Both the position numbers and the translations under genes were made by a program. Below, one piece after another: positions 12,762-45,687 of a stretch of 64,000 nt of DNA; within the stretch, counting starts at the first letter, position 1, and the number at the start of each line of letters is the position of its first letter. The notes under the pieces were generated by a model. That model did no database searches. It was not told where the DNA came from and saw only the letters and a program-made list of their open reading frames with translations. The stretch lies in IMG/VR virus record IMGVR_UViG_3300043788_000023, positions 96,001 through 160,000 of that record; one strand, given 5' to 3'. The stretch comes from a virus.

Positions 12762-12928
12762 GCGTTCCATCCTGCGAAGAACGCCTTCCAAGCGTTCTCG
12801 GTGTACGGCGAAACGTATTCACCGTTGGCGCACTGATCCAGCGAGTACCAGATAGGCTTGACGCCTTCCCTCGTCCAGAACTCAAACTCGGCGCGAGCCT
12901 TCTTTTCGTTCTTTTGTTCAGATGTCAT
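12758..12928 (-). CDS. Small hypothetical protein
   Basis: ATGA overlaps with the genes on both sides. Confidence 0.5.
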   Translation of the reverse strand: MTSEQKNEKKARAEFEFWTREGVKPIWYSLDQCANGEYVSPYTENAWKAFFAGWNA

Positions 12929-32331: not shown

Positions 32332-33192
32332 ATGATTTCTTGGATTATCGCAGCAGCCGTAACCGCAGGAACAGGCGGAGGTTACGCCGTCTATCGTGCC
32401 AAAAAGAAAAAGCCGACCCCGGCACCCGTCCCGAAACCGACGCCACCGCCCCCACCAGCCCCCAAGCCCGTGCCTACACCTACTCCCAATCCGACGCCGA
32501 CTTTTGAGGATGATTTCAGCAGCGGTACCCTGTCATCAAACTGGCGTGTATCAAACTGGACAGCGCCAGGTAACGTCGCAGGTGCGAACGTCGGCACCTT
32601 CATCCCCGCAAACGTTGATCTGAGCCAAGGTTGCCTGTGTCTCAAGTTGCAGCAGACCAAGAACGCCGATGGCTCCGTGTCCTCGGTCGGTGGTGAGATT
32701 CAGCTTAACCAACTCTGCGGGTACGGCACGTACGTCTACGACATGCGTGCATCGTCAACGAGCGCCACGGTGTCCGGCGCAGGATCGGCCGTCAACGGTC
32801 AGATAAGCTCGGGATTCAACTACCTGCCGGATGCGAACTACAACTCAATCACCGAAATTGATGCGCCCGAGATTGAAGGGCAGCACCCGAACCAAATCTC
32901 CTACACGGTGTGGAACAACCAAGTGTCGGAAGACACCAGCGCTGTTCCGATTCTTTCGCCGGATGCCCAGTTCCACGAATACAAGTTCCAGTGGTTCGCT
33001 GGGAGCGTGAAGTTCTTCCTTGACGGTCAGCTTGTCTACACGGCTACGACGAACATCCCGGCGCAAGCCGCCTACATGATGTTCAATCATTGGGGAACGA
33101 ACAGCACGAACTGGGGTGGTCTTGCGACACCGGGCGTCGACCGTTTCATGTACGTGAAGAATTTTAAGTTTTACGCGAACGCTGCTGTCTGA
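32332..33192 (+). CDS. GH16 glycoside hydrolase with N-terminal anchor
   Basis: EIDAPE catalytic-like motif, FEDDFS, FHEYKFQW, FMYVKNFKFY; Pro linker. Confidence 0.8.
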   Translation: MISWIIAAAVTAGTGGGYAVYRAKKKKPTPAPVPKPTPPPPPAPKPVPTPTPNPTPTFEDDFSSGTLSSNWRVSNWTAPGNVAGANVGTFIPANVDLSQGCLCLKLQQTKNADGSVSSVGGEIQLNQLCGYGTYVYDMRASSTSATVSGAGSAVNGQISSGFNYLPDANYNSITEIDAPEIEGQHPNQISYTVWNNQVSEDTSAVPILSPDAQFHEYKFQWFAGSVKFFLDGQLVYTATTNIPAQAAYMMFNHWGTNSTNWGGLATPGVDRFMYVKNFKFYANAAV

Positions 33193-33530
33193 AGAGTCAA
33201 GGGGTGATGCTCTTTGACATGGCAGTTCTTGCAAAGAACTTCGCACTTCGCAATCTCGGCTAATATGCGTTCTTTACTCCAGCCGTTGTTGGCGGCCTGT
33301 GCTAGATTCGTGTCTTTCTGCGTTGGGTCTAAGTGGTGGAAATCTAAACAAGCCCAGTGGGTTTCTGGGCAACGATTACACTTCAGCGTCTTTAACTCAT
33401 GAAACCACGCCACAAGTTCGTTGCGGCGCTGGGCAATTTCAGCCCGACGCTTACGCTGGTTTTTAGCATACCAGCGCTTGTTAAAGCGACGATTATAGGT
33501 CTTCTTTTTTGCTTGGTTCTTGAATGGCAC
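33171..33530 (-). CDS. HNH endonuclease
   Basis: CNRC...LDFHHLDP...EIAKCEVLCKNCH. Confidence 0.85.
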   Translation of the reverse strand: MPFKNQAKKKTYNRRFNKRWYAKNQRKRRAEIAQRRNELVAWFHELKTLKCNRCPETHWACLDFHHLDPTQKDTNLAQAANNGWSKERILAEIAKCEVLCKNCHVKEHHPLTLQTAAFA

Positions 33531-33542
33531 CAAGTTTAATAC

Positions 33543-33627
33543 TGGCTGGGAAGGCAGGATTCTAACCTGCAAGCCTTGCGGCACCAGTTTCAAGGACTGG
33601 CGTGTTTAACAATTCCACCACTTCCCA
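33543..33627 (-). tRNA. Atypical class-II tRNA with UUG (Gln) anticodon and Leu-type body
   Basis: Acceptor UGGGAAG/CUUCCCA-G-CCA; loop CC-UUG-AA; long variable arm GCC-GCAA-GGC. Confidence 0.75.
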
Positions 33628-33633
33628 AGAGAT

Positions 33634-33707
33634 TGGCTGGGAGACTAGGATTCGGACCTAGACTTCTTGGTTCAGAGCCAAGCGTGTTGCCGTTACACTA
33701 TCTCCCA
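33634..33707 (-). tRNA. tRNA-Gln(CUG)
   Basis: Cloverleaf; loop CU-CUG-AA; U1-A72, G73; encoded CCA. Confidence 0.92.
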
Positions 33708-33716
33708 AAAGAAAGT

Positions 33717-33790
33717 TGGCTGGGAGACCTGGATTCGAACCAGGATAGCAGGGTCCAAAGTCCTGCGTCCTACCGTTGGACGATCTCCCA
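33717..33790 (-). tRNA. tRNA-Gln(UUG)
   Basis: Cloverleaf; loop CU-UUG-GA; encoded CCA. Confidence 0.93.
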
Positions 33791-33799
33791 AAAGAAAAT

Positions 33800-33875
33800 T
33801 GGAGCTACCAGAGGGCATCGAACCCCCAACCTCCGCATTACAGGTGCGGCGCTCTGCCAATTGAGCTATGGTAGC
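33800..33875 (-). tRNA. tRNA-Thr(UGU), C33
   Basis: Cloverleaf; loop CC-UGU-AA; U73-CCA. Confidence 0.9.
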
Positions 33876-33884
33876 GAAAATTTT

Positions 33885-34121
33885 TTACTTGCAGCAGCGC
33901 CCGTTCATCGGATGCTGGGCTTCAGGCACCGGGTAGACCGTTGCGCCCTTGTGCTCCTCGCAGGGCCAAACGTGTTCGCTTCCGTCTCGTGCCAACCACT
34001 TGATGCCGTACTGCTCCAGCGGATTGACGACCGCCTCTACCGCCAGTTCCACGTCCCCGATCACGACCTTCTTGCCCATGAGCAGGTTCATCGCCTGCTC
34101 GCCGTTCAACTTGATTTCCAT
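33885..34121 (-). CDS. Small hypothetical protein inside the tRNA operon
   Basis: 78 aa with GGAG RBS, between Thr tRNAs. Confidence 0.6.
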   Translation of the reverse strand: MEIKLNGEQAMNLLMGKKVVIGDVELAVEAVVNPLEQYGIKWLARDGSEHVWPCEEHKGATVYPVPEAQHPMNGRCCK

Positions 34122-34136
34122 TTCATCTCCCGAACT

Positions 34137-34212
34137 TGGAGCTACCGGGTGGATTCGAACCACCGACCTCCCCCTTACCAAGGGGGCATTCTACCAACTG
34201 AACTACGGCAGC
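34137..34212 (-). tRNA. tRNA-Thr(GGU)
   Basis: Cloverleaf; loop UU-GGU-AA. Confidence 0.93.
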
Positions 34213-34223
34213 AAACTTAAACT

Positions 34224-34299
34224 TGGAGCTACCGGAGGGCCTCGAACCCCCGACCTCCGCATTACGGGTGCGGCGCTCTACCAACTGAGCTACGGTAGC
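34224..34299 (-). tRNA. tRNA-Thr(CGU), C33
   Basis: Cloverleaf; loop CC-CGU-AA. Confidence 0.9.
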
Positions 34300-34310
34300 A
34301 CTACAAAAAT

Positions 34311-34385
34311 TGGTACCCATGGAGGGATTCGAACCCCCATAACACGCCTATCGAGCGTGCGTCCTAGCCGTTGGACGACACGGGT
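34311..34385 (-). tRNA. Atypical tRNA-Ile(GAU), C33
   Basis: Acceptor ACCCGUG/CAUGGGU-A-CCA; loop UC-GAU-AG; Gln/Glu-type D arm. Confidence 0.8.
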
Positions 34386-34397
34386 AAAACAAAATCG

Positions 34398-34549
34398 TGG
34401 TGGAGCGTGCGGGATTCGAACCCGCTTCGGTACCAAACGATCTCAAGCCCATCCAGCTTCGGATTTTTGCCCGTCGCCTTCAACTGCTCGCTTGCGATCC
34501 GGGGAGTCGAACCCCGCGTGAGTCGTCGCTCTAGCCTCCAAGCCGCCCC
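34398..34549 (-). ncRNA. 152-nt tRNA-Ala/tmRNA-like RNA with a second T-arm inserted in place of the anticodon loop
   Basis: GGGGCG/CGCUCC-A-CCA (G3:U70, A73); D-like arm; terminal T-arm; internal CGGGG-UUCGACU-CCCCG. Confidence 0.75.
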
Positions 34550-34558
34550 ACAGAAATT

Positions 34559-34634
34559 TGGTAGGCGCGACTGGGATCGAACCAGTGACCTCAGTCTTAT
34601 CAGGACTGCGCTCTGCCAACTGAGCTACGCGCCT
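34559..34634 (-). tRNA. tRNA-Ile(GAU)
   Basis: Canonical cloverleaf; loop CU-GAU-AA. Confidence 0.95.
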
Positions 34635-34647
34635 TCAAAACGTGCCT

Positions 34648-34685
34648 AAAAACAAAAAAGCCGACCACTTGTTGCTTGGTCGGCT
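34648..34685 (-). terminator. Attenuator terminator upstream of the tRNA operon
   Basis: AGCCGACCA/UGGUCGGCU stem plus UUUUUGUUUUU, ~14 nt before tRNA-Ile. Confidence 0.88.
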
Positions 34686-34713
34686 GCTAACGTCCTGAAT
34701 TTGCTGGGCTTAC

Positions 34714-34803
34714 TTAGTCTTTGAAGCCCTCAGACACGTCAACGGACCGACCGCATGTAATTCGTTGCGTCGTCGTAGTTCGCGTTGTAGGTGTCTGGTT
34801 CAT
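34714..34803 (-). CDS. Attenuator leader peptide MNQTPTTRTTTTQRITCGRSVDVSEGFKD
   Basis: 29 codons with 8 Thr, 2 Gln and 1 Ile in the first 16; overlaps the antiterminator strand 34736-34752. Confidence 0.82.
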   Translation of the reverse strand: MNQTPTTRTTTTQRITCGRSVDVSEGFKD

Positions 34804-34819
34804 GATCTTTTCTTTGTGT

Positions 34820-34854
34820 TGGCTGGGAGTCTCCGGTTTTACCAAAGACTCCCA
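34820..34854 (-). ncRNA. tRNA acceptor-stem minihelix, Gln-like (G-CCA end)
   Basis: UGGGAGUCU...AGACUCCCA-G-CCA; first 6 bp and discriminator match the tRNA-Gln genes. Confidence 0.7.
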
Positions 34855-34856
34855 AC

Positions 34857-34890
34857 TGGAGCCGAAACTCAGCTTTCGCTAACCTTCGGC
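34857..34890 (-). ncRNA. tRNA acceptor-stem minihelix, Thr-like (U-CCA end)
   Basis: GCCGAAG-G-UUAGC-GAAA-GCUGA-G-UUUCGGC-U-CCA (7+5 bp). Confidence 0.7.
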
Positions 34891-34892
34891 AT

Positions 34893-34926
34893 TGGTGGAG
34901 AACCTCAGATTTCGCTGCGATTCTCC
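34893..34926 (-). ncRNA. tRNA acceptor-stem minihelix (A-CCA end)
   Basis: GGAGAAUC...GGUUCUCC-A-CCA. Confidence 0.65.
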
Positions 34927-34932
34927 GTCTTG

Positions 34933-34964
34933 ATTATATTACTGGAAGTCCAGAAATATGTCAA
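34933..34964 (-). promoter_or_regulatory. Sigma70-type promoter of the minihelix/attenuator/tRNA operon
   Basis: TTGACA-N17-TAATAT, with an overlapping TATAAT. Confidence 0.8.
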
Positions 34965-34983
34965 GGTTATTTTCGCAGCGCCT

Positions 34984-35187
34984 TTAGACGGCTGTGACGC
35001 GTTCGGCTTGGAGACCCTTGGGTCCCTTGACCACTTCAAACTCAACTGCTGCGCCTTCGTCAAGGCTCTTGTAGCCCTCGCTCTGGATCGCCGAGAAATG
35101 TACGAATACATCCTCGCCAGTCTGACGGGTGATAAAGCCATAGCCCTTTGCTGCGTTAAACCACTTCACGGTACCTTGTTCTGCCAT
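34984..35187 (-). CDS. cspA: Cold-shock protein
   Basis: GTVKWFN...KGYGFI (RNP1) and DVFVHFSAI (RNP2). Confidence 0.95.
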
Positions 35188-35296
35188 TTTGTTTCCTTTG
35201 ATTGGATTGCTGAGAAAGTCTTTTGCGGGAGGGGTAAGCCTACAGCGGAGATCAGTTCTACCAGCTACTACACTATAATACCGAAAGTTGGGAAAG

Positions 35297-36198
35297 TCAA
35301 GCCTTGATTAGCGGTAGTTCCTCGGGCATGATCCCGAAGGTGTCCCACCAGAACTCGGGCTGTTTGTCCCCGTTGTTCCGAAAATAGCGTCGGCCTTCAC
35401 GCAGGGACTTCTCCATGCGACCACGTTCCCCATCCATCCAGCCCATAAACGAACATTCCACGCCCTGCGGGTTGAGACGCATGAATCGCCGGATCAGGCG
35501 ACGGCAGACGTAGTTCCTGCCCCTGTTGCCCGGCACGATGTCCTGCTCGCGGAACACGCACAGGGTGCGGAAATGGTCGCGGGACACCGGGTCTAGGTCC
35601 TGCCGGAAGAGGCTCGTCTCGTCCACGCGGCTTTTGCCTTCCACGATCTGAAGCATGCGCTCGTAGCCGAAGCCCACGTCCACGGAGTGCCCCATCGGGT
35701 TCACGAGATTGCCTACTTCAAGCCCCTCCGGCGTGAACAGTTCCGAGCAGTAGCCGCCCACGGTGCCGTCCGACCAGACGCAATCCGGGTCGTGGCACAC
35801 GGGGAAGACTCCGTTCCAGTGCCGCTCAAAGCCGGACTCCGGGTGGATGTTTACGTGGGAGATCGGGATGCCGAGGTCGCGGACGATGCCCGTCCACATG
35901 TCGCAGTGCCGCTGGTAGTCGTCCGTGCCGAAGCCGAAGCTACCGACCATCTGGAAGAAGGTCAGGTGCGTGCCGTCGCCGACCTCGTCGATGTCATTGG
36001 TGCGGACGCAGTGCTGGATGTTGCCGTGGCTGGTGCCGTCCGGTGTCTGGAACCTTGGCTTGAGTGGCTGCATCCCCGCGCTGATGAAAAGCGTGGTGGG
36101 GTCGTTCTCGGGGATTATGTTGGTGCTTGGTTCAAAGGGGAGACCGTTCTCGCTGAAGTGGCGTCGAAGGGTCTCGTTTAGGCGTCCCGCTGTGACAT
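35297..36198 (-). CDS. Minimal alanyl-tRNA synthetase-like protein (aminoacylation core only; start is out of frame)
   Basis: [39 protein letters not shown], motif 3 [13 protein letters not shown]...[21 protein letters not shown]; RBS-linked ATG at 36198 is one base out of frame. Confidence 0.82.
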
Positions 36199-36227
36199 GG
36201 CATCCTCCTACCCTATGATACCAGAAG

Positions 36228-36590
36228 TTAAGAGACTATGGCGGCTTTTCGTCTCGTCAAGTTAAAGGTTTCGCGCACACCCTTGAATGAGACTTCAACC
36301 TGTTTAGCTTGGGACAATAGAGCCTCAAGCACGCGCTCACAGGTACCAGAGTCGCCGTACAAAATCTCCCAGTGAACGTACCCGGCTTTCAACTCTGCCG
36401 AAGGACGGCAAGTTTGAAGATGGCTGACATCAGACGGGAGCAACCGAGGCAACACCACTTGCACGCTGTATACTTCAGCGCGTGAGGAGTTGGCGATAAG
36501 AGCGATGATACGCTCTTTAAGCTCAAACCGTGTTAGCTCCGGCAGTTGACCGCTCATAAGTTCCCCTGTAAAGGGTTCTAATACGCTCAT
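36228..36590 (-). CDS. Hypothetical protein
   Basis: 120 aa; ATGA-coupled to the kinase gene. Confidence 0.5.
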   Translation of the reverse strand: MSVLEPFTGELMSGQLPELTRFELKERIIALIANSSRAEVYSVQVVLPRLLPSDVSHLQTCRPSAELKAGYVHWEILYGDSGTCERVLEALLSQAKQVEVSFKGVRETFNLTRRKAAIVS

Positions 36591-37375
36591 TTCGTGCCCT
36601 CCATGGCTCTGTTAGCGAAGTCGTGCGTCGGTTGGGGAAGCTCGTACACCACGCCAGCGTTTTGAAGACTGGCTTGCAGTTGCTTGCGTGTGTCTGGTGT
36701 AAACTGCCCATGGACTTTCTGAAACCCCCGATGAAAAATGGCGGAGACGTTGTCTTGATAGGTGTCCAAAATTTGGCGACCCTGAGGCTGTAAAATCCAG
36801 TCCAGAACTTGGTTGGCTTCACCGCTTGCGTTCGCGGCGAGGGCAATCCCATAGTCAATGCCGACTAGCCCGTATGCGGGCGAATACGCCCAGTTGCCAA
36901 GGTGACGGTCGGTTACCCCGTAAGCTTTGTGGAGCCAGTGCCACTGTCCCAGTTGATCCAAGAATCGCACGCGCCATGCTTCGGTTAGCTGAATCAACCG
37001 CCATGCGTCAGGCTGCTTGTCGAGCGTTACGGCTCCGGGCACCCATACGATGACGTTTGTGTCTCGGTTTTTCAGCACCCCAATTTCGTCTATGTCAATC
37101 TTGAGGATAGGTCGGGCATTGTCAACCCGCAGCAGCATGGCAGCCTCAGCTACGAGGCGTTCATTTCGGGCAGCATTTGCATGACTCGGCGAGGCTTTGA
37201 GACTACCCACCACGCCGTTTTCGGTGAGTAACTTGAAGTGGGTGTCGTTGTTCGCCCCGGAACTGGTTATCGTGTCAGCGGCTACAGGCTCCACAGCAAC
37301 GATTCTCCCAAGCGACAGAGATAGCGCAGTTAGCTTGGCGTTGATGCTGTCCAGCAGTGTTTGGTCGAGGAGCAT
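36587..37375 (-). CDS. HipA/PI3K-like kinase-fold protein
   Basis: LK...NE, DRHLGNW catalytic loop, IDYG Mg-binding motif. Confidence 0.65.
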   Translation of the reverse strand: MLLDQTLLDSINAKLTALSLSLGRIVAVEPVAADTITSSGANNDTHFKLLTENGVVGSLKASPSHANAARNERLVAEAAMLLRVDNARPILKIDIDEIGVLKNRDTNVIVWVPGAVTLDKQPDAWRLIQLTEAWRVRFLDQLGQWHWLHKAYGVTDRHLGNWAYSPAYGLVGIDYGIALAANASGEANQVLDWILQPQGRQILDTYQDNVSAIFHRGFQKVHGQFTPDTRKQLQASLQNAGVVYELPQPTHDFANRAMEGTK

Positions 37376-37383
37376 GCCCTATT

Positions 37384-37722
37384 CTAGTCTTGAACCCTTT
37401 CCCAAGTCACGTAAACTTTTCGCGCCTTCAAACCGGATTGCTTCACGGGCTGGTAATTCACATCAACCGCCTCAACGATTCTCTCCCAATGGCAATGCTT
37501 GTTTCCAAGAGGGGCATCGTCAAAAGCACAACCGTGTGGCGCGTTGTCAGTGGGCATGATCACCGCACTTTCAGGAACATCGTAGTCTTTGGCGTACTCA
37601 GCGGCATCGGGCTGCGCCCAACTACATCCGGCTGCGCGGCAAAGCCAAAAAATAACGCCAATCAGGATGAGGCCCGACACTGTTCCAAATGGATTGCTTG
37701 AAGCCTTTTTTGTCTCAGCCAT
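37384..37722 (-). CDS. Membrane-anchored hypothetical protein
   Basis: N-terminal TM helix; PHGCAF..APLGNKHCH. Confidence 0.6.
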   Translation of the reverse strand: MAETKKASSNPFGTVSGLILIGVIFWLCRAAGCSWAQPDAAEYAKDYDVPESAVIMPTDNAPHGCAFDDAPLGNKHCHWERIVEAVDVNYQPVKQSGLKARKVYVTWERVQD

Positions 37723-37907
37723 TATTGCACCGTACCCGTGATCACGCGCCCGCCGCCGTTGATGTAGTCGGGTTGAACCACGCACGGGCCTTGGATGCAG
37801 GTGTGGTTGCCAGCAGGCACTAAGTCACCTGCGTGGTAGACGGGTTGCTGTGGGGCAGAGGAACACGCACACAGCAAAACAACTGGCAGGAGCAGCAGAC
37901 TTTTCAT
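37722..37907 (-). CDS. Small lipoprotein
   Basis: MKSLLLLPVVLLCAC lipobox; GGAGGG RBS. Confidence 0.6.
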   Translation of the reverse strand: MKSLLLLPVVLLCACSSAPQQPVYHAGDLVPAGNHTCIQGPCVVQPDYINGGGRVITGTVQ

Positions 37908-37997
37908 CGTTCCCTCCAGCCATAGTATACAGCGGGGTCTGAAGGATTGTCTACGAAGGAAAAGCGAAGAGGGCACGTCCCATAACGGAGAGTATGT

Positions 37998-38504
37998 TTA
38001 CCTGCCTGCGCGTGCTTCTTCCCTTATTTTTTCGTCTCTAAGGGCTTGGTAGATCGTTCCCACAGAGCACTGATGCTTCTTCGCAACAGCGCGATAACTC
38101 ATCCCACTTTGCCGATCTCTTTTGACCGCTTCTAAATCAAAGACTCTTTTAGGTCGTCCGGGGAAACGTCCATTTTCACGGGCTTTTTCCAGCCCGCGCT
38201 TGATTCTCTCGCCCACGGGAAGCATGCTGTACAACACTGTCAGGTCTCCGGGCTTATACACGACGACGGGCAAGCCCGCTTTCGCCAGTAATCCTGCGAC
38301 CTCGTTTTGATTGCCGTGCAGTTGTCGCCCTACCGTGGGGCCTTTTGTCTCAATCGGTCGAATAGTTAGTTCATCTGTCTCAGGGTCAGTTCGGTAGCAA
38401 AGAAAATCGGGCCAGCCGTTTCTGATAACAGTCCATCCATCCGCCTCAAGCTCTTCTTTAGCTTGTCGTTCCGCTTTGGTCAGATTCCTCGCCGTTATAG
38501 CCAT
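37998..38504 (-). CDS. VRR-NUC/PD-(D/E)XK nuclease fused to a resolvase-type HTH
   Basis: GWPD...IETKGP...Q; GRFPGRP; SYRAVAKKHQCSVGTIY. Confidence 0.65.
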   Translation of the reverse strand: MAITARNLTKAERQAKEELEADGWTVIRNGWPDFLCYRTDPETDELTIRPIETKGPTVGRQLHGNQNEVAGLLAKAGLPVVVYKPGDLTVLYSMLPVGERIKRGLEKARENGRFPGRPKRVFDLEAVKRDRQSGMSYRAVAKKHQCSVGTIYQALRDEKIREEARAGR

Positions 38505-38509
38505 CAGAT

Positions 38510-38698
38510 TTACCTTGTCTTACACACCGCGCATCTGGAATCGCTGGGCGGTATCAGGTGCTTGCAACTGCGGCACGGGTGATAGCCCAAGTCCAGCAAC
38601 GTTTTCCTGCTCCGAACGCCCCAGTCCCGGCACCACGGACACAGACCGTTTTCGTCAAGCTGGTACCAGAAATTGCGAAGTTTGGTCAGGATTCCCAT
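38510..38698 (-). CDS. Small Zn-ribbon protein
   Basis: Three CxxC motifs. Confidence 0.45.
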   Translation of the reverse strand: MGILTKLRNFWYQLDENGLCPWCRDWGVRSRKTLLDLGYHPCRSCKHLIPPSDSRCAVCKTR

Positions 38699-39171
38699 TT
38701 GCCCAGCTTGCTGCGCAGCCTTGCCTCTACAGCAGGGGGCACCAATCCCGAGACCGATCCGCCGTGGCGCACGACCGCCCGCACAAGCGACGAGCTTAGA
38801 TAGCTGTGAGCCTCGCCGGGTATCATGAATACGGTCTCTATCTCAGGGGCGAGCTTGCGGTTCATCATCGCCATCTGTAACTCGTACTCATAGTCGGACA
38901 CGGCGCGGATGCCGCGCAGCAGGATGCGTGCTCCCAAGTGTTTCGCGTAATCCACCACCAGCCCTTCAAACGTCCCCACCTCTACGTTTGGGAGATGCTT
39001 GGTGTTCTCGTGCAGCATCTCTATCCTCTCCTCCAAGGAAAAGAGGGGTGCCTTGTCGCTCTTCAAGGGCACAGCCACGTAAACTATGCCGATCTTGGAA
39101 GCCCGCGAGATCAGGTCAAGGTGCCCGTTCGTGACGGGATCGAATGTGCCCGGATATACGACGATGTTCAC
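38686..39171 (-). CDS. coaD: Phosphopantetheine adenylyltransferase
   Basis: YPGTFDPVTNGHLDLI, LRGIRAVSDYEYELQMAMMN and YLSSSLVR motifs. Confidence 0.95.
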   Translation of the reverse strand: MNIVVYPGTFDPVTNGHLDLISRASKIGIVYVAVPLKSDKAPLFSLEERIEMLHENTKHLPNVEVGTFEGLVVDYAKHLGARILLRGIRAVSDYEYELQMAMMNRKLAPEIETVFMIPGEAHSYLSSSLVRAVVRHGGSVSGLVPPAVEARLRSKLGKWES

Positions 39172-39558
39172 TTAAAAAGTTCCGATCCGCTCGCGCTTCT
39201 CCAGCCCCATCTCCACGCACCAGTCTTGCAGCACCGTGATGGCCTTGATCACCTGCTTGCGGGTGATCTTCTTGTACTTCCGGTTGTGGAAGATGTGGTC
39301 GGCTGTCTTCTCGGCGGCGCAGGCGATGGGCAGGTTCGTGTTCCAGTCCGTCTCCTTGGCGAAGCCGCAGCCGATGGTGCCGAACTTCGGGAATATCTGC
39401 ACCGCCTGGTCACGGTACAGCTTGATGCGGGCGATGAAGTAGTCCTCGTCCAGCGGGGGCGTGATTGACACCAACACACCACCCTTCGCCACGAACGTGT
39501 CTTCCGCCTTGGCGAAGCTTGCGTTGACCTCGATGACTATCTTCTTACTCGTGCTCAT
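39172..39558 (-). CDS. Hypothetical protein
   Basis: 128 aa; strong phage-type codon bias. Confidence 0.6.
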   Translation of the reverse strand: MSTSKKIVIEVNASFAKAEDTFVAKGGVLVSITPPLDEDYFIARIKLYRDQAVQIFPKFGTIGCGFAKETDWNTNLPIACAAEKTADHIFHNRKYKKITRKQVIKAITVLQDWCVEMGLEKRERIGTF

Positions 39559-40231
39559 ACTCTTCCTTCTCAACCTTGCCCTTACGGTTGACCGTGATCT
39601 TCATGTGGTCGCCGAACATGGTCTCAAGGTCTTCCTCGTCAAAATTCCCGAGGAACTTGGAGACCTTGTCCGTCGCCTTGTCAAACGCCTTGCTGTACTC
39701 CTCGTGGGACTTGACCTTCACGCCGTCCACGGTGATTGCACCCTTCTCGTCAATGGCGACGGTCTTGCCGTCGATGCTCATGGCGGAAATCTTCCCGCCC
39801 TTCATGCCGTCGAACATGCGCTTGTAGTCGTCCTGCGTCTTGATCTCGTCGCCGTCCTCATTGGTGAGGTCGCCGCTGTTCTCGTCGTACGTGATCTCCT
39901 GCCCGTCCAAGACCAGCGTGACGGAGGGGTAGTCGGTGTGGGCGCTGAACTCGCAGACGTCCCCGTCGTTCCAGTAGGGCGTGTACTGGGTCCAGCCGAA
40001 CGTGATGATGTCCGGGTTCTCCTCAAAGAACTCCTCCGCCATCTCAGCGAAGGCGCTCTTCGCCGTGGTCTCCATCGCCTTTTTGGCTTCGGCGATCTTC
40101 TTCTTCAGTTCTTGGTACTTCTTCGCTGCTGCGGTTGCCATGATGGGTTTCTCCTCTGATTTTGGTTCCGGTTCCGGCATGTAGTGCGGGTGTCCGACTG
40201 GCGGCTTGTTCAGTCCATTCATCGGGTCCAT
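39545..40231 (-). CDS. Conserved phage hypothetical protein
   Basis: WTQYTPYWNDGDVCEFS...MFGDH...VTVNR motif. Confidence 0.7.
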   Translation of the reverse strand: MDPMNGLNKPPVGHPHYMPEPEPKSEEKPIMATAAAKKYQELKKKIAEAKKAMETTAKSAFAEMAEEFFEENPDIITFGWTQYTPYWNDGDVCEFSAHTDYPSVTLVLDGQEITYDENSGDLTNEDGDEIKTQDDYKRMFDGMKGGKISAMSIDGKTVAIDEKGAITVDGVKVKSHEEYSKAFDKATDKVSKFLGNFDEEDLETMFGDHMKITVNRKGKVEKEEYEHE

Positions 40232-40232
40232 G

Positions 40233-40619
40233 TCAGTCCACCGTTTTCCTTTTCCTCAAAAGTCTCTTCGCTGACGGAGGCGGCTCGCCTCGCCCGGTTA
40301 CCATCCATTCCTTGACTTCCATCTCTTGGAGGAAGTCCTGCGCGGAGGGGATGAACCTCCCCCGGAAATCCTCAAGCACGTGCTGCTCGCCGATGTCCCG
40401 CACCGAGATCGTCATGCCGTCGCTGTTCTTCAGCGTGACCCCGAAAACCAGTTCAAGGATCGTGCCCACGAACCATGCGTTGTGGGTCAGCGTCCTGTGG
40501 CGGCTGTCCGCCATCGTGCCCTTGGAGGAGTCCATGAGGTTGTGAATCTCAATGTAGTCCTCGGGCTTACCACCAAACTTTTTGGCGCTGCTCTCTGCGT
40601 GAATCCAAGGCTTCGCCAT
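40233..40619 (-). CDS. DUF6915-like protein
   Basis: PWIHAESSAKKFGG..EDY..IH..MDSSK....D.RHR...H...GEQHVLED. Confidence 0.7.
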   Translation of the reverse strand: MAKPWIHAESSAKKFGGKPEDYIEIHNLMDSSKGTMADSRHRTLTHNAWFVGTILELVFGVTLKNSDGMTISVRDIGEQHVLEDFRGRFIPSAQDFLQEMEVKEWMVTGRGEPPPSAKRLLRKRKTVD

Positions 40620-41116
40620 CAGAGGTCATCGTCGCTTTCAACCTCTGGAAATGGGTAATCTCCCAAGTTCGTCGGGCTGTGATCAATGGTCACACCGTGG
40701 TTGTGACCCCAAGAAAGCTTGACCTCCAAGTCCGGTTCGCTTCCCCAGAACTGGAGCACCGTGCCGCCGCTGACTTGGTTCAGATGCCACCCAAAAGGCT
40801 TGCGTGACTTCTCCACCATCGCTTGGTATTCCTTGTACGCCTTCGTCGCTGCTTCGTGTTCGGCTTTCAGTTCGCCCACGGTCTTCGTGTCGGGCGTCGC
40901 GGACGTGATTGTTGCGCCATAGCCAGGAGACGGGGCAGGAGTTAATTTCTTGAATTCGTGTTCGGTGTTCAGGTAGGACTCTTGTGCCTGCTCGCAGAGG
41001 GCGTCAAGCTCTTCCTCTGACATGTCAATCGGCACCCAGACGTAGGTGTACCCGGTGCCGTGCTTCCAGCTTATCGGTTCACCGCAGCGCCAGTGCTCAA
41101 TCCTTGCAAGCTTCAT
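40619..41116 (-). CDS. Hypothetical protein
   Basis: GAGGAG RBS; TGATG coupling to the next gene. Confidence 0.6.
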   Translation of the reverse strand: MKLARIEHWRCGEPISWKHGTGYTYVWVPIDMSEEELDALCEQAQESYLNTEHEFKKLTPAPSPGYGATITSATPDTKTVGELKAEHEAATKAYKEYQAMVEKSRKPFGWHLNQVSGGTVLQFWGSEPDLEVKLSWGHNHGVTIDHSPTNLGDYPFPEVESDDDL

Positions 41117-41117
41117 G

Positions 41118-41417
41118 TCAGTTCTCCTCAACGATGTCAAGCATGCGTCCCGCAGCGGAAAGACGCCCACGCATATAGTTCACTGCGAAGAAAAGTTCCT
41201 CGGCTGCTTGTTGGGAGAAGGCTTGTGCGAAGATGCGACCGTCAGACTCGTAGATGTTCCACTGGTTGTTGTACATCCCGTCGTCAACGAACTCCATCCG
41301 AGTTAGAGGCAAGTAGATCATGGGAGAAAGCGCAAGGGAGGCTGCGCAGCCTCCCCCACATAGCTCACCAGTGCTCACCAGTACTGTCAAACCCTGACCC
41401 TCATCGGAGACACTCAC
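41118..41417 (-). CDS. Hypothetical protein
   Basis: ORF fills the operon gap; start uncertain. Confidence 0.4.
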   Translation of the reverse strand: MSVSDEGQGLTVLVSTGELCGGGCAASLALSPMIYLPLTRMEFVDDGMYNNQWNIYESDGRIFAQAFSQQAAEELFFAVNYMRGRLSAAGRMLDIVEEN

Positions 41418-41529
41418 GTGAGCTTCAACTCTCCGAACTATTGGCGGATTCTATTAGACTGGACTGTCGCTCTGGACTGTCGCCAAGTTCATAATACATC
41501 TACTGGGGGATTTTGCAACATGCGGCCGC

Positions 41530-42285
41530 TTAAGACTGCACAGCCCGCCACATGCTTTTTAGCGCACGGCTGACTTCAGCACGAGCTTCCGGTGTCCAAT
41601 GTGCTGCGAGAGCTTTGGACATGCGCTTGCGCACACGGTCAGGAGCCTTGTCCCAAACCGCGGTCATCTGTTGGCTGATTCTTTCACGGTCTTCAGGGGA
41701 CCAACGTGCGTCCTTGAAGGAACGTCCGTAGTTATGCTTGGGTCCGTGCCCCTTGCCTCGGTAAATGCCGTGAGCACGTGCTATCCTCGCAACGTATAAA
41801 GTGGGCTTGTTTAGGTCACGACCGATGTCAGAGTAGCTTTGATCCGGGTGCTTACGCACATATTCAGCGACCTCGGCGTTGCGCTGCCTAGATTCTTCGG
41901 TCACGTTTGTGCGGCGCTGATTGCTGCGGTACACGACCTGACCGACCACGTGCTTCGGCAACCCGAACGCTTCGGAGATTTCTATGTAGGTCATCTCAGG
42001 GTGCGACTGCACGTAGCGCAGGATGCGGGTATCACGCTTCTGTTGGAGTTCCTTGGCGGATAGGACTCGGGGCACTCGTGGTTTGGGGGTTCTCCACTCC
42101 AAGTGGGATGTCCCGGTGAGACCAGCGGCACGGGCTTTCTTGAAGTTCCGGCGCTTCGCTGCAAAATAGACGGAGTTCATAGAACGCCCGAAGTGCGCCC
42201 CGATCTCACGCCAAGTAAGCTCCGGGTGTTCAGCAGCGTACTTCACAACTTCATCGTTGGATTGTTTGGAACTGTACTTGCTCAT
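41530..42285 (-). CDS. Basic DNA-binding protein with three HTH repeats and NUMOD3-like helices
   Basis: Three Y..xHP..(T/S)(W/Y)..I repeats; W(S/T)PE.R repeats. Confidence 0.65.
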   Translation of the reverse strand: MSKYSSKQSNDEVVKYAAEHPELTWREIGAHFGRSMNSVYFAAKRRNFKKARAAGLTGTSHLEWRTPKPRVPRVLSAKELQQKRDTRILRYVQSHPEMTYIEISEAFGLPKHVVGQVVYRSNQRRTNVTEESRQRNAEVAEYVRKHPDQSYSDIGRDLNKPTLYVARIARAHGIYRGKGHGPKHNYGRSFKDARWSPEDRERISQQMTAVWDKAPDRVRKRMSKALAAHWTPEARAEVSRALKSMWRAVQS

Positions 42286-42305
42286 GCTTGCTAATACTTG
42301 AAAAT

Positions 42306-42390
42306 TGGTACGCGGGGGAGGAATCGAACCTCCGACCTCTCCTCATCAAAAGGGGAGCGCTCTGGTACAACCCAACTGAGCTACCCGCGT
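42306..42390 (-). tRNA. Atypical tRNA, anticodon undetermined (expanded D loop and anticodon arm)
   Basis: Acceptor ACGCGGG/CCCGCGU-A-CCA; normal T arm; anticodon region CUCCCC-UUUUGAU-GAGGAG. Confidence 0.65.
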
Positions 42391-42392
42391 AT

Positions 42393-42497
42393 TGGAGCGC
42401 CTGGGGGGATTTGAACCCCCGACCAACGGATTATTTCTCCGCTGCTCTTGCGAGGTCGGTTTTAGAGACCGCCGCTCTACCACTGAGCTACAGGCGC
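42393..42497 (-). tRNA. Amber-suppressor tRNA(CUA), 105 nt, with an extra anticodon-like arm
   Basis: GCGCCUG/CAGGCGC-U-CCA; loop CU-CUA-AA; inserted GCGGA-GAAAUAA-UCCGU arm. Confidence 0.72.
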
Positions 42498-42502
42498 AAA
42501 CT

Positions 42503-42577
42503 TGGCACCCCCGGTGGGATTTTTACCCACATGCGCGGCTTTAGAGGCCACTGCTCTTGCTGTTGAGCTACGGGAGT
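42503..42577 (-). tRNA. Amber-suppressor tRNA(CUA) with degenerate D and T loops
   Basis: ACUCCCG/CGGGGGU-G-CCA; loop CU-CUA-AA; T loop UAAAAAU. Confidence 0.78.
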
Positions 42578-42703
42578 ATGGTGTACGCATCTTATCGCAC
42601 CCACGAGGGCGTAAGGGAGACTTTCTTTCCGGGTGCGCGGCGTACCTGCGATTTTTCCCGTCAGTCGTCTCTGCGAAATATCGTTCGGTGTCTAATACTG
42701 GTG

Positions 42704-42782
42704 TGGTGGGGTCGGCGGGATTTGAACCCGGCGATCAGGGTTTTAGAGACCCCTGCTTTGGGCCAGACTAAGCTACGACCCC
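42704..42782 (-). tRNA. Amber-suppressor tRNA(CUA)
   Basis: GGGGUCG/CGACCCC-A-CCA; loop CU-CUA-AA; T loop UUCAAAU. Confidence 0.85.
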
Positions 42783-42788
42783 GCACCA

Positions 42789-43394
42789 TCAGTATACAGC
42801 CACCTCTTTCAAACTGGCTACCAGCTTCTTGCCGATCTTGTCAATCTGCTTCCACTTGATCTTGAACGTGTCGCTGTCAAGCTGATGCAGCCATGACGCG
42901 TTTGAGTGAATCTCCGCAAGACCCGCAAGGATCAGTGACGGAGCCTCGGGACGCTTGATGAACTCGTCAATGGCGGTTGCGCCCTTGATCGTGTGGATGT
43001 CCATGTCCGCCCGAATCAGGTCGCCGATCTGCTCGTCTTCCGGTGACCAGTGATCGTGCCCGTCAAGTTGTATAGCAGCATGCTTCATCCACGTCTCGTA
43101 ACTGATCTGCGCGTGGTTCGTAAAATGCTGCTTGCCGTCCTCGTCCACAGTGCGACAGAACGGCTTGCCGCAGTCGTGGTAGATCAGGTAGTGCTGCATG
43201 ATGTTCAGAGGAAGCTGGTGCGGCTTCATCGCTGCTGCCCACTCGGGCATGCGCCACTTGAGCTTTGGCTCCGGGCTGATGATGTCCAGATAGCGGGCGA
43301 ATACGTCCATCCCGTGATCCAGCACACTCATTCCGGGGAACTGCTCACACCTCTTCATCGGTTCTTCCAGCTTACACAGATTGGTCTACAGCAT
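42789..43394 (-). CDS. HD-domain phosphohydrolase with an in-frame TAG at codon 3
   Basis: SVLDHG, YHDCGKP, HFTNHA, DMDIH; GAGGAGG-N6-ATG CTG TAG in frame with the ORF. Confidence 0.78.
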
Positions 43395-43572
43395 TGTCTT
43401 CCTCCTCGGCGCAGAACCCGCAGTGCGGGCACGTGACGCCATATAGAATTCCCCAGCAATACGACTTGCCACACTTTTCGCAAGCAAGTCTGTGGGAGCC
43501 GGGGTTTGAGCTTCCACAGCAACAAAGTTTTGTCACCACTGGTGACGGCATAAACACGTCAAGCCAACTCAT
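43372..43572 (-). CDS. Small Cys-rich Zn-ribbon protein
   Basis: CEKC and CPHC; TGATG coupling. Confidence 0.5.
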   Translation of the reverse strand: MSWLDVFMPSPVVTKLCCCGSSNPGSHRLACEKCGKSYCWGILYGVTCPHCGFCAEEEDNAVDQSV

Positions 43573-44237
43573 CAGACATCCTCCTCGGTGCTGCCCTGCT
43601 TGCGGACGCCCCATCCTCCGCGCCAGTATACCTCAAGGGTGTCATCCCACATCGCCTCACGGCGGTCGTTCCAACTGGGCCAGACCTCGTACTCCTTCGC
43701 GCCGATCCCGAGGATGCCACCGTGCTTTTCTTTCTTCGGCGGCAAATCCTTGACTGGGTCTTTGGGGCTGAGACCAAGCTTCCCGTAGGCGTAGTCCGCA
43801 GCGTGGCGGCATTCTTCACCGCCTGGACGAATCTCATCTGCGTGCCTTTTCACCCAGCGGTGGAAGGCGTCCATCTCAACCTTCAGTTCCACGTCGCGGC
43901 TCGCCTTGCGGGTCTCGTCATCGCTCTTGCGGTAGCGCTCGGCGGAGTCCGAGTTGCCCACTTCCGAGTAGTCAATCTCGGCGTCGGGGGTATCCCACAG
44001 CAGATCGGTGATGCTCATTGGCGAGATCACGACCTTTGATCCTTTGCTGGTGTACTTACCGCCCACGAGATCGTAGTAGGGCTTCTTCGCCGGGTCACGC
44101 TTCAGCACTTGCAGGCGTCCGTCCCAGTACGCAGGCTCGGTGGTCACCGTGAAGATGTCCACGTTCTCCACGCAGCACTCAAGCTCACCGCTCGGATCGG
44201 CTTCCTGTAATTCCGCTATTAAGTCCTTGGTTTTCAT
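43572..44237 (-). CDS. Hypothetical protein
   Basis: MKTKDLIAELQEADPSGE...PAYWDG; ATGA coupling to the Pth2-like gene. Confidence 0.7.
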   Translation of the reverse strand: MKTKDLIAELQEADPSGELECCVENVDIFTVTTEPAYWDGRLQVLKRDPAKKPYYDLVGGKYTSKGSKVVISPMSITDLLWDTPDAEIDYSEVGNSDSAERYRKSDDETRKASRDVELKVEMDAFHRWVKRHADEIRPGGEECRHAADYAYGKLGLSPKDPVKDLPPKKEKHGGILGIGAKEYEVWPSWNDRREAMWDDTLEVYWRGGWGVRKQGSTEEDV

Positions 44238-44602
44238 TGTATTGCTCCTGTTGCGTCCGGCTCGTGCCAGAGGCGGTAATTGGACAGCGCCCGGCGCTGC
44301 ACGCCCTCAATGGGGACGGTGGCAACGGCAGACAGACCCATATTGAAGTCCGGCTCGTAGAATACCTGATGACCGATGTCGTGGGAACGCAGCTTCTCAA
44401 TGACACGGAAGAGCGCCGCCTTGTCGGGCACACCAATGGTGATGCACGATGGGGTCACGTCTAAATCTTGGGGTTGAGACAAACGGCGGGCGACCTCAAA
44501 GGTCGCGTGATTGGACTGAACCAACTGTTGCGCAAGGCTGATGTCCTGCCTCACGAACACGTAAAAGTAGGGGTGTTGCTGGGAAACCTAGTGCTGTGAC
44601 AT
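44234..44602 (-). CDS. Pth2-like peptidyl-tRNA hydrolase with an in-frame TAG at codon 5
   Basis: YFYVFVRQDISLAQQLVQSNHA...FYEPD...LSAVAT.P; ATG TCA CAG CAC TAG in frame; GGAGG upstream. Confidence 0.75.
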
Positions 44603-44655
44603 ATCCTTTGAGCCTCCATGACTCAATACTGCTAAAGTGGTCAGTAGTCAAATAA

Positions 44656-44817
44656 ATTGTCGGCGCGACGAACGGGAAATCGAACCCGAACTCCATACGG
44701 TGAGGAACCAACCGCCGCTCGCTTCGGCTGACTCATCCGGCTAGATGACGCCTCCACGATTATCGCTATCCGGGGAATTCGAACCCCGCTCTCAGCCACG
44801 AGAGGTCGCCCGACGAT
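44656..44817 (-). ncRNA. ~160-nt structured RNA with two T-arm hairpins (related to 34398..34549)
   Basis: Closing helix GUCGG-GCGAC/GUCGC-G-CCGAC; CGGGG-UUCGAAU-UCCCCG and CGGG-UUCGAUU-UCCCG; own promoter. Confidence 0.68.
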
Positions 44818-44833
44818 AACTCCAACAGTGCAT

Positions 44834-44862
44834 ATTATCTCACAGATCGGCGGCTTTGTCAA
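44834..44862 (-). promoter_or_regulatory. Sigma70-type promoter of the ncRNA/Pth2/HD/suppressor-tRNA operon
   Basis: TTGACA-N17-GATAAT with extended -10 TG. Confidence 0.8.
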
Positions 44863-45046
44863 CAGCATCTTTTACGAAACTAAGCACCTCATCGTAGTGC
44901 TCAGCGCACAACCAGCCCTGAGCCAGCTTGATAGACGCGGGCTTGTCGCAGAGGATCGGATCGCCGTCTTCCCCCGGCTCCGTGTGGAAATCCACGATGA
45001 ACTGGCAGTTGTGCAAAACTGGCTCCAGCCGTGGAGTTCCGTCCAT
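44840..45046 (-). CDS. Small Cys-rich protein
   Basis: CQF...CDKPASIK...WLCAEHYD; paralog of 14049..14279. Confidence 0.55.
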   Translation of the reverse strand: MDGTPRLEPVLHNCQFIVDFHTEPGEDGDPILCDKPASIKLAQGWLCAEHYDEVLSFVKDAVDKAADL

Positions 45047-45054
45047 GTCACCAC

Positions 45055-45314
45055 GGCTCAGGGGATTTTCCGGCGCTCATCCTCAGCATTGTTCCCGACG
45101 CCAAGGTTTGCCTATTCTTCTTTCGGCGCAATCGCACCGCTGTCCCCGAGTTGAAGAACGTCCAAGCAGCGGGGGTCAATTCCCCCTTCAAGACAAGCGC
45201 AGGTGAGTTTTACGTCACCTCTCCCCGCAAGCCCTGTCACACTTGGCAAAGTCTAGTCTCCCGTAGGTTTACTTTCGGAACCGATGACGTCTGCTGCCCA
45301 CGGACACTGGAGCC
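45055..45314 (-). ncRNA. Candidate ~260-nt structured ncRNA
   Basis: No credible ORF; TG-G-TATCAT -10 just upstream; GGCUC/GAGCC closing stem; several hairpins. Confidence 0.4.
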
Positions 45315-45332
45315 TTCTGTATGATACCACCA

Positions 45333-45361
45333 GAAACAAAAAAGCCCAGCCGAAGCTGGGC
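45333..45361 (-). terminator. tmRNA terminator
   Basis: GCCCAGC-UUCG-GCUGGGC plus UUUUUUGUUU. Confidence 0.85.
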
Positions 45362-45652
45362 GAATTTTGTGGTGTTGAGGATCAGAGACACCGTCTCTGG
45401 GCACGCAGGTTTTTAAGCTGCGGCTGCCATTGCCATTGCCTTTGGAGCAGTGACGTTTAGTTGTTTCCATCCTGATTTTCGAGGGTATGGTACCTCGGGT
45501 CGCTAGCTCCGTCCTCGCACGTCTTCCGTCGAAACCGATTACCCCCGCAGTGGTGGAGGTAGAGGGAATTGAACCCTCGTCCGAAAAGACTGTCTGGTGC
45601 CTTTTACCCCCACACTTACCCTTCGGCAGTCTACAGGGGCTTACGACCATCT
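45362..45652 (-). ncRNA. ssrA: Circularly permuted (two-piece) tmRNA; tag (A)VTAPKAMAMAAAA*
   Basis: T-arm + UACCUCC-A-CCA (ending 45551) precedes GGGGGUA...GGUUUCGAC (starting 45546); G3:U70; tag ORF 45454-45413. Confidence 0.88.
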
Positions 45653-45658
45653 AACCTA

Positions 45659-45687
45659 AGAATACCGTAGTTCTGGTACTTTGTCAA
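45659..45687 (-). promoter_or_regulatory. tmRNA promoter
   Basis: TTGACA-N17-TATTCT. Confidence 0.75.

Follow-up and report, generated by a model that had tools for sequence, protein, structure and literature searches.

We analysed a 64,000-nt stretch of a viral genome from IMG/VR (record IMGVR_UViG_3300043788_000023, positions 96,001 to 160,000; hereafter the window) and, in particular, a block of tRNA, transfer-messenger RNA (tmRNA) and protein genes at 33543-45687. All positions are window coordinates, and the minus strand carries every part of the block. A single contig of 169,608 bp contains the window, which has a G+C content of ~57%, carries almost all of its genes on the minus strand and contains structural and HNH phage genes; the long structural open reading frames (ORFs) were unbroken under translation table 11. 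ARAGORN identified 12 tRNA and tmRNA genes on the whole contig, all of them inside 33543-45644. The block looks like a module for the support of translation, conserved in a clade of large soil phages and comprising tRNAs, a tmRNA and putative tRNA-end enzymes. Its anatomy, conservation and coding signatures are reported here as found, and from these we infer every regulatory and enzymatic step. An original prediction, made from the sequence alone, had read the region as one island of attenuated tRNAs, minihelices, CspA, a mini-AlaRS, a HipA-like kinase, suppressor tRNAs, TAG-gated Pth2-like and HD genes, a tmRNA and tRNA-like non-coding RNAs, with several parts gated by ribosome behaviour.

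Conservation of the block in related phages

Relatives were gathered by way of two proteins, the alanyl-tRNA synthetase (AlaRS)-like and the Pth2-fold one, and of a DNA pattern in the tRNA-cluster leader, all described below. They comprised L001/L004 (the end of a 436-kb contig), L003, L005, L006 (462 kb), L007 (202 kb), L008 (278 kb), L009 (263 kb), L010 (332 kb), L011 (463 kb), L012 (222 kb), L013 (438 kb) and L014 (97 kb). A megablast search of a phage collection returned no nucleotide match to the window. The gene order of the block was shared by L001, L006-L009 and L011-L014 (contigs of 202-463 kb), together with a matching Ile/Thr/Gln tRNA content. Where the DNA reached, the conserved order was tmRNA, Pth2-fold gene, tRNAs with anticodon CUA, variable genes, AlaRS-like gene, sometimes CspA, leader, and Ile, Thr and Gln tRNAs. 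The original prediction would have been contradicted by parts that did not occur together in relatives; the core parts did so, in the same order, in every relative with enough DNA. The single island that it had proposed for all of the listed parts was not supported: the kinase was unique to the window phage, and the HD gene, CspA and the CCA-ended hairpins were variable, each missing from some relatives. In L001 the CUA tRNAs lie only ~500 bp from the AlaRS-like gene, and the 12 kb of the window are therefore better described as two conserved modules with variable cargo between them.

The phage or near relatives were present at low depth in sequencing runs of soil metagenomes, and contigs of one soil metatranscriptome library fell on 34678-35311, 39211-39438, 42740-42972 and 45026-45562.

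A candidate attenuator ahead of the Ile/Thr/Gln tRNAs

Eight tRNA genes form a cluster at 33543-34634 (ARAGORN; Rfam tRNA matches of 54-69 bits). In order of transcription they run from tRNA-Ile(GAU) (34559-34634) through an Ile-like tRNA with anticodon GAU (34311-34385), Thr-CGU (34224-34299), Thr-GGU (34137-34212), Thr-UGU (33800-33875), Gln-UUG (33717-33790) and Gln-CUG (33634-33707) to a last Gln-UUG with a long extra arm (33543-33627), and a 79-codon ORF (33885-34122) sits among them. The cluster stands behind a leader ORF and a terminator, which agrees with the attenuated tRNAs of the original prediction.

The leader ORF (34714-34803, 29 codons) begins MNQTPTTRTTTTQRI and holds segments 1 and 2 of the attenuator. 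Eleven of the 15 codons after its ATG specify Thr, Gln or Ile, a count that ranked first among the 2,934 open ATG windows of the genome. The ORF was kept in 10 sequence variants, at 27-31 codons and with the motif M[NK]QT.TTRTT..Q.I. In these variants the first 16 codons were nearly fixed, and the C-terminal half was free in sequence and length; Thr codons differed at the third position only, and replacements were often Thr, Gln or Ile. A second leader-like ORF, with 10 of 15 codons for Thr, Gln or Ile, was rejected, as it starts at an internal Met of a long structural gene.

The intrinsic terminator (34652-34685) consists of a 5' arm (34677-34685), a 3' arm (34659-34667) and a U tract (34652-34658), and ends 17 nt ahead of the first tRNA. 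All 10 variants showed its hairpin when the full-length sequence was folded to minimum energy, and in eight of them this fold combined pairing 1:2 with pairing 3:4, the one that forms the terminator. For transcripts ending in the terminator loop, by comparison, a long 2:3 helix covering 7-9 nt of the terminator 5' arm was predicted in 10 out of 10, and this structure was ~4 standard deviations more stable than shuffles. The paired segments covary between two clades (GGUCGG:CCGACC versus GGGCG:CGCCC). A promoter scan placed a promoter-like site, TTGACA-17-TAATAT, at 34936-34964, where it would serve a unit of hairpins, leader and tRNAs; relatives have a similar site at the equivalent place. The scan gave no promoter-like site between the terminator and the tRNAs, and the tRNA operon would therefore be made only by read-through.

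Leader-peptide attenuators are known from amino-acid and synthetase operons, such as trp, thr, his and pheST of enterobacteria. Two features of the trp/thr type, an ORF with regulatory codons and a terminator with alternative pairings, are present here at the level of sequence. The likeness extends to the short ORF with its run of regulatory codons, to the mutually exclusive pairings 1:2, 2:3 and 3:4 and to a terminator that abuts the regulated genes. The window attenuator differs in being phage-borne, in having CCA-ended hairpins ahead of it, and in that the regulated genes are not biosynthetic or synthetase genes but the tRNAs for the Thr, Gln and Ile codons of the leader itself. It would act like the thr and trp attenuators: ribosomes stalled on the Thr, Gln and Ile codons of the leader would keep segment 1 off segment 2, and the freed segment 2 would join segment 3 in a helix that takes up the terminator's 5' arm, so that the tRNA genes are transcribed. 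The tRNA operon would thereby be made on demand for exactly the Ile, Thr and Gln kinds, and the arrangement fits supply on demand.

Three tandem hairpins of 34-35 nt, each ending in a discriminator base and CCA, lie between the promoter-like site and the leader ORF (34820-34926) and correspond to the predicted minihelices. Their fold had z = -6.6, computed on a 296-nt region. H1 (34893-34926) ends in A-CCA, H2 (34857-34890) in U-CCA and H3 (34820-34854) in G-CCA, the last with a Gln-type acceptor (U1:A72, G2:C71, G3:C70). These ends mirror the acceptors of the downstream tRNAs for Ile (A73), Thr (U73) and Gln (U1:A72, G73). One to three such hairpins occurred in eight of the 10 variants, with compensatory changes in the stems and an invariant N-CCA end; they were absent from L008 and L011. 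Our literature search found neither an attenuated tRNA operon nor phage minihelices described.

Some further features of the tRNA cluster were observed. The tRNA-Gln(UUG) of 85-86 nt with a long extra arm is kept across relatives (33543-33627 in the window; 18396-18481 in L006; 18095-18180 in L008), as are tRNA-Thr(UGU) genes of 82-86 nt; such sizes are unusual for both. An HNH endonuclease gene adjoins the cluster in the window (33171-33530), and in L001 one lies within the cluster on the opposite strand (12520-13233), which suggests homing-endonuclease traffic in the cluster.

Suppressor tRNAs and two genes with an early in-frame TAG

Three tRNAs with the amber anticodon CUA (42396-42782; ARAGORN, and Rfam matches of 53-62 bits) bear out the suppressor tRNAs of the original prediction. 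One has G1 and A73 (42704-42782), one has A1:U72 and G73 (42503-42577), and the third has a long extra arm and U73 (42396-42497). All relatives carry 1-3 CUA tRNAs at the same place, of similar kinds as judged by their 5' halves. Next to them in the window stands an odd 85-nt tRNA with a 15-nt D loop (42306-42390; Rfam tRNA, 49 bits), which ARAGORN called Glu-CUC; another reading of its anticodon arm gives a UUG loop. Similar acceptor stems were found in L011 and L014.

The Pth2-fold gene (44234-44602) starts with a Shine-Dalgarno (SD) sequence, ATG, three codons, TAG (44588-44590) and GTT, and continues in frame with HPYFYVFVR. In eight out of nine loci, representing seven distinct sequences, we found the same design of SD-ATG, 1-8 variable codons and an invariant in-frame TAG GTT; the codons after the TAG varied synonymously among loci, and neither of the two nearby candidate GTG starts was conserved among them. 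The AlphaFold model of the protein (predicted local distance difference test, pLDDT, 86) has YFYVFVR as its first strand, and either GTG start would therefore cut this strand. In a Foldseek search the model matched 2zv3, 3erj, 1q7s, 1wn2 and 1xty, among them archaeal and human Pth2, with a template modelling (TM) score of ~0.7 and E values of 1e-5 to 6e-4. The Pfam family PF01981 was matched at E values up to 0.1 by 11 of 29 relatives of the protein (best 3e-5). Prokaryote genomes searched with it gave no close relatives.

The HD gene (42789-43394) has an SD-ATG-CTG-TAG start (TAG at 43386-43388) and likewise continues in frame. An SD-ATG-Leu-TAG start was present in all five distinct loci with the gene; the Leu codon before the TAG varies synonymously (CTG, TTG, CTA), and the peptide after it is conserved as x-N-L-x-K-L-x-x-P-M. 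A start at Met 43358, suggested by jumbo-phage homologues that align from residue 1 of the shorter ORF, was withdrawn, given that relatives keep both SD-ATG-Leu-TAG and the peptide after the TAG. The H...HD...D residues were kept in an alignment of 26 homologues, and the AlphaFold model (pLDDT 94) had its best PDB matches in 3wfo-3wfs (TM score 0.6), entries titled 'tRNA processing enzyme' which we take to be class-II tRNA nucleotidyltransferases. A faint NCBIfam match to the CCA-adding enzyme was also obtained, and the HD gene product, as modelled, resembles the C-terminal half of CCA-adding enzymes.

For both genes the codons after the TAG match the N-termini of distant homologues with ordinary starts. 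M-x-Q-V stands at the aligned place in distant Pth2-family homologues of this kind, an indication of Gln for the TAG of the Pth2-fold gene, and the CUA tRNAs probably read UAG as Gln. A purine directly after TAG favours suppression, and the base after the TAG was a purine in every Pth2-fold and HD locus. A genome scan returned these two SD-ATG-early-TAG starts as the only ones on the coding strand and no mid-gene TAG between coding stretches; the phage is therefore not recoded, and genome-wide TAG recoding was ruled out as TAG lies in two genes only, right after the start. A crude whole-genome count of stop codons was too noisy to quantify TAG avoidance. TAG still ends real phage genes, so strong suppression would have a cost, and suppression is probably partial.

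Phages with their own suppressor tRNAs that read TAG as Gln ('code 15') are described in the available text of Borges et al. (bioRxiv 10.1101/2021.08.26.457843). As far as that text goes, the CUA tRNAs, the in-frame TAG, the idea of gating by read-through and Gln as the likely reading are common to both cases; here, in contrast, two genes have one TAG each, 2-9 codons past the start, and the rest of the genome follows the standard code, with TAG still ending some genes.

The homologues collected numbered 151 for the Pth2-fold protein and 328 for the HD protein. In two homologous proteins, P0235 and P0237, an HD domain is joined to the C-terminal half of the Pth2-fold domain. In view of these fusions, the Pth2-fold and HD proteins are probably partners in acting on tRNA 3' ends. 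Full-length products of both genes would be made only when the neighbouring CUA tRNAs read the UAG, and output would depend on how much matured and charged suppressor tRNA there is in relation to release factor 1. Such an amber gate would suit the licensing, timing or self-limitation of two enzymes with the potential to damage charged tRNAs. If tRNAs were generally disabled the gate would fail rather than respond, and licensing or feedback fits better than an alarm.

The original prediction of TAG-gated Pth2-like and HD genes stood as regards the early in-frame TAG and the folds, while the Pth2 assignment of the window protein stayed below the Pfam cut-off (see below). In L013, the most distant relative, an SD-ATG lies before the Pth2-fold gene in another frame (9900-10000), and either a frame change is required there or the assembly has an indel. 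The called N-termini of P0235 and P0237 begin mid-domain, and an upstream in-frame stop may be hidden there too. A promoter-like site at 44834-44862 (11 of 12 matches, plus TG) and a structured leader of ~230 nt with two T-arm-like elements precede the Pth2-fold gene (44603-44862). In L001 a small membrane ORF takes the place of this leader, which is therefore not conserved.

An AlaRS-like gene that begins in another frame

The reduced AlaRS-like gene (35297-36208) has a main frame running from a Leu codon at 36179-36181 to the stop at 35297. The product matched Pfam tRNA-synt_2c with 60.3 bits (cut-off 30.3), and the 294-aa frame aligned to PDB AlaRS from residue 13 (E value 1.5e-19), over residues 13-183 and 214-310, including the CVR, FFxM.GxFxFG, GxC.E and DxGxGxER segments. 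It stops near AlaRS residue 320 and has internal deletions: the ~300-aa protein matches only about residues 13-323 of the solved AlaRS aminoacylation fragments of 435-465 aa. The original prediction of a mini-AlaRS was thus supported by the match to the AlaRS core, and goes too far in view of the early end and the deletions. The product is an AlaRS-core-like protein that should not be filed as AlaRS, and its activity is a prediction only.

The main frame had no start codon of its own in any of seven variants. Its first in-frame ATG (36073) already lies inside the homologous region; upstream of it the frame is open and conserved up to the Leu codon at 36179-36181, this extension has its homologous counterpart in the N-terminus of AlaRS, and ahead of the ATG it differs between the window and L008 by 18 synonymous versus six non-synonymous changes. 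In place of a start we found an SD (36203-36208) followed by a six-codon mini-ORF, MSQRDA-stop (36178-36198), in another frame than the AlaRS-like gene. The mini-ORF and its invariant SD were kept in the seven variants, and in every one the mini-ORF stop overlaps the first conserved Leu codon of the main frame: the stop is TAA, TAG or TGA, and the Leu codons (CTA, TTA, CTG+A) all create it. The last mini-ORF codons are GAC GCC/GCT (GAG GGC in L012). Joined, the mini-ORF and the main frame have the length of a canonical AlaRS N-terminus, and the passage between them requires a -1 or +2 shift. Translation of the AlaRS core would take a frame change or a restart at the mini-ORF stop codon. Slippage and hopping at the junction were rejected as candidates, as the sequence offers neither a slippery heptamer nor a landing codon that matches in the required frame. 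Several ARAGORN tRNAs beside the CUA tRNAs of relatives have two-base anticodons, with six-membered anticodon loops (L008 12523-12596; L011 114-188 and 509-584), and these could bear on the frame change of the AlaRS-like gene.

The gene prfB, which encodes RF2, regulates itself through a stop placed early in its own frame, which ribosomes pass by a programmed frameshift: they slip by +1 on CUU U, helped by an SD-like stimulator close by. As in prfB, a conserved stop stands soon after the start of a translation-factor gene, ribosomes have to do something else there than terminate, and output would report the activity of the termination and decoding machinery. The cases differ in that the AlaRS-like junction takes -1 or +2 and has no slippery sequence, and in that the Pth2-fold and HD genes take read-through and not a shift. 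The mini-AlaRS of Tupanvirus, according to the available part of the paper (PMC10036535), consists of the aminoacylation part only, acts on the acceptor stem alone and charges G3:U70 substrates. Both viral proteins are cut down to the aminoacylation part; the phage protein differs from the one in that source in having a predicted activity only and a translation that appears to require recoding. An obvious substrate for the ~300-aa core would be the phage tmRNA, the only G3:U70 candidate with strong support in the phage.

The tmRNA gene and tRNA-like elements

The tmRNA gene is of the two-piece (permuted) type, with the tag VTAPKAMAMAAAA, and occupies 45322-45687 including its promoter (tmRNA proper 45322-45644; ARAGORN and Rfam RF04321). 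The score of 70.6 bits against a gathering score of 47 leaves the tmRNA of the original prediction in place. The G3:U70 acceptor and the tag are visible in the Rfam alignment, and the tag frame ends in Ala-Ala. A promoter-like site was located at 45659-45687 and a terminator at 45344-45361. All relatives covering the region have a tmRNA with a similar tag. Parts of the tmRNAs of relatives (L009 8489-8570; L012 8846-8923) match the betaproteobacterial tmRNA model at 49-53 bits, below the gathering score, a faint hint at the host group. Between the tmRNA terminator and a small ORF (44840-45046), a non-coding stretch of ~270 nt on the minus strand (45050-45320) looks structured; it had no family match in Rfam and has a conserved counterpart in L001 (6100-6380), and a metatranscriptome contig spans 45026-45304 without mismatch.

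The tRNA-like non-coding RNAs of the original prediction correspond to two Rfam matches below threshold, neither of which was found in relatives. The tmRNA-like acceptor and T-arm element between the two Ile tRNAs (34398-34515; Rfam tmRNA, 23.8 bits, E value 3e-7, below gathering) has an acceptor stem with G3:U70, A73 and CCA. It folded no better than shuffles (z = -1.0) and was not detected in L008, L009 and L012, and we dropped it as a conserved part. The other is a mascRNA-like element in the leader of the Pth2-fold gene (44764-44821; 25.6 bits, E value 0.04).

CspA and the variable cargo

A CspA-family cold-shock protein is encoded at 34984-35187, as predicted (Pfam CSD, 2e-29), with a promoter-like site at 35272-35300; CspA was present in six of nine relatives. 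A match to the cspA thermoregulator (32 bits versus a gathering score of 78) is due mainly to the coding region and was not used. The protein of 262 aa at 36587-37375, predicted as a HipA-like kinase, resembled HipA_2/PI3K-type kinases only in the ESM Atlas (features 0.95; TM scores of 0.62-0.70 to HipA_2 and PI3_PI4_kinase clusters, 0.62-0.65 to the HipA_2 clusters), and it had no match in Pfam or NCBIfam and no homologue in any relative locus. Its assignment to the HipA family, made from Atlas features and structure, is a lead only. Two helix-turn-helix genes and several other genes are, like the kinase, unique to the window phage. The cytidylyltransferase-like gene at 38686-39171 is CoaD/PPAT (TIGR01510, 9e-58), unrelated to translation and common to only one relative, L014. 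The ORF preceding it (39172-39573) ends in a stop that is directly followed by the CoaD GTG start in the same frame.

Weighing the explanations

We consider it fairly probable that the block is a ribosome-gated translation-support module, in which the attenuator, the amber gate and the frame change tie expression to ribosomes on short leaders. The ribosome gating of the original prediction received comparative sequence support for all three devices, i.e. the attenuator, UAG read-through and a frame change at a stop codon. As to its purpose, a timer or self-limiting feedback and the sensing of stress or an answer to abortive infection are equally possible.

Several observations speak against the gated module. 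For the attenuator, the ribosome-binding site of the leader is weak and GA-rich; pairing of the GC-rich terminator arm alone was not rare in the shuffle control (3-29% per sequence); and the covariation rests on two clades. The metatranscriptome contigs cannot show transcript ends, and DNA may have been carried over into the library, so we drew no conclusion on expression or termination from them. Against the amber gate, the Pth2-fold gene of L013 is the exception that has no TAG, and TAG is a real stop for three of 48 long ORFs of the window and for some very long genes elsewhere. The Pth2 assignment itself is weakened by a PF01981 score of 14.4 bits (cut-off 23) and by the deletion, relative to PDB 24bt, of the segment with the GK lysine, although the Asp of the EPD motif is invariant in the family. 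Finally, the AlaRS-like junction has no slippery sequence and offers no re-pairing in the -1 frame for Ala, and the AlaRS-like gene of L001 has an ordinary ATG further in.

The early stops could also belong to ordinary upstream ORFs before the Pth2-fold, HD and AlaRS-like genes, with termination and nearby restart (translational coupling), and the CUA tRNAs would then serve otherwise. The design of SD-ATG, a few codons and a stop is indeed common to all three genes, the HD gene of L009 has an ATG directly after the TAG, and read-through is no option for the AlaRS-like gene, given its two different frames and a stop that can be TAA, TAG or TGA. In the Pth2-fold and HD genes, however, the stop is TAG in every case and never out of frame, no start is conserved after it and yet the codons that follow are conserved as protein, CUA tRNAs are found in every locus, and the Met-Leu before the TAG of the HD gene, with its synonymous Leu variation, looks like part of the protein. 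We regard upstream ORFs as quite improbable. Another explanation would be an ordinary tRNA and tmRNA island for codon supply, in which chance, decay or assembly errors account for leader ORF, early stops and frame break alike. Large phages commonly have tRNA and tmRNA clusters, and several neighbour genes here are unrelated cargo; the accessible parts of the jumbo-phage papers mention such tRNAs and tmRNAs. The jumbo phages CBB, GAP32 and RsoM2USA encode homologues of the HD gene, annotated in their records as hypothetical proteins only. This explanation is already disfavoured, and we hold it very improbable, as between seven and 10 diverged sequences, assembled independently of one another, show the same fine features together with substitutions of the coding type, and as the composition of the leader is the extreme of the genome.

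The remaining explanations concern what a gated module would be for. A counter-defence kit would sense translation damage by tRNA-targeting abortive infection and deploy spare tRNAs, decoy minihelices, end-repair enzymes and the tmRNA. All of these parts are predicted to work on the ends of tRNAs or on stalled ribosomes (the Pth2 fold, the HD protein resembling the CCA enzyme, the CCA hairpins and the tmRNA), and the spare tRNAs stand under a demand-type attenuator. Phages are known to meet anticodon nucleases with tRNAs of their own and, in T4, with tRNA repair. Pth works against aminoacyl-tRNA-acetylating toxins, and pyrophosphorylated CCA ends of tRNAs can be restored by HD hydrolases. On the other side, the amber gate requires working tRNAs and would hence shut under tRNA attack; Ile, Thr and Gln tRNAs are not the usual targets of anticodon nucleases, which are mostly Lys, Glu and Arg tRNAs; and the hairpins, CspA, the HD gene and the kinase each occur in only part of the clade. 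We think counter-defence rather unlikely as an explanation. A more ambitious version would join all devices in a self-contained translation-surveillance circuit, in which stalling calls up tRNAs, UAG read-through yields enzymes that clean tRNA 3' ends, a frame change supplies an AlaRS core that charges tmRNA, and the CCA minihelices are acceptor-stem decoys or substrates; the phage would thereby gauge and repair host translation, including after attack by a tRNA-targeting defence. We judge the whole circuit unlikely.

If the gates work, the ribosome-gated module would include the first case known to us of a tRNA operon under a leader peptide of its own codons. It would also explain the seemingly useless amber-suppressor tRNAs of standard-code phages as switches for a few chosen genes, and would give a natural example of three recoding and attenuation devices wired into one translation module, with compact, portable sensors of tRNA charging and suppression efficiency. 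The block further points to two uncharacterised enzyme families, the Pth2-fold proteins and the HD proteins that resemble CCA enzymes, which probably act on tRNA 3' ends.

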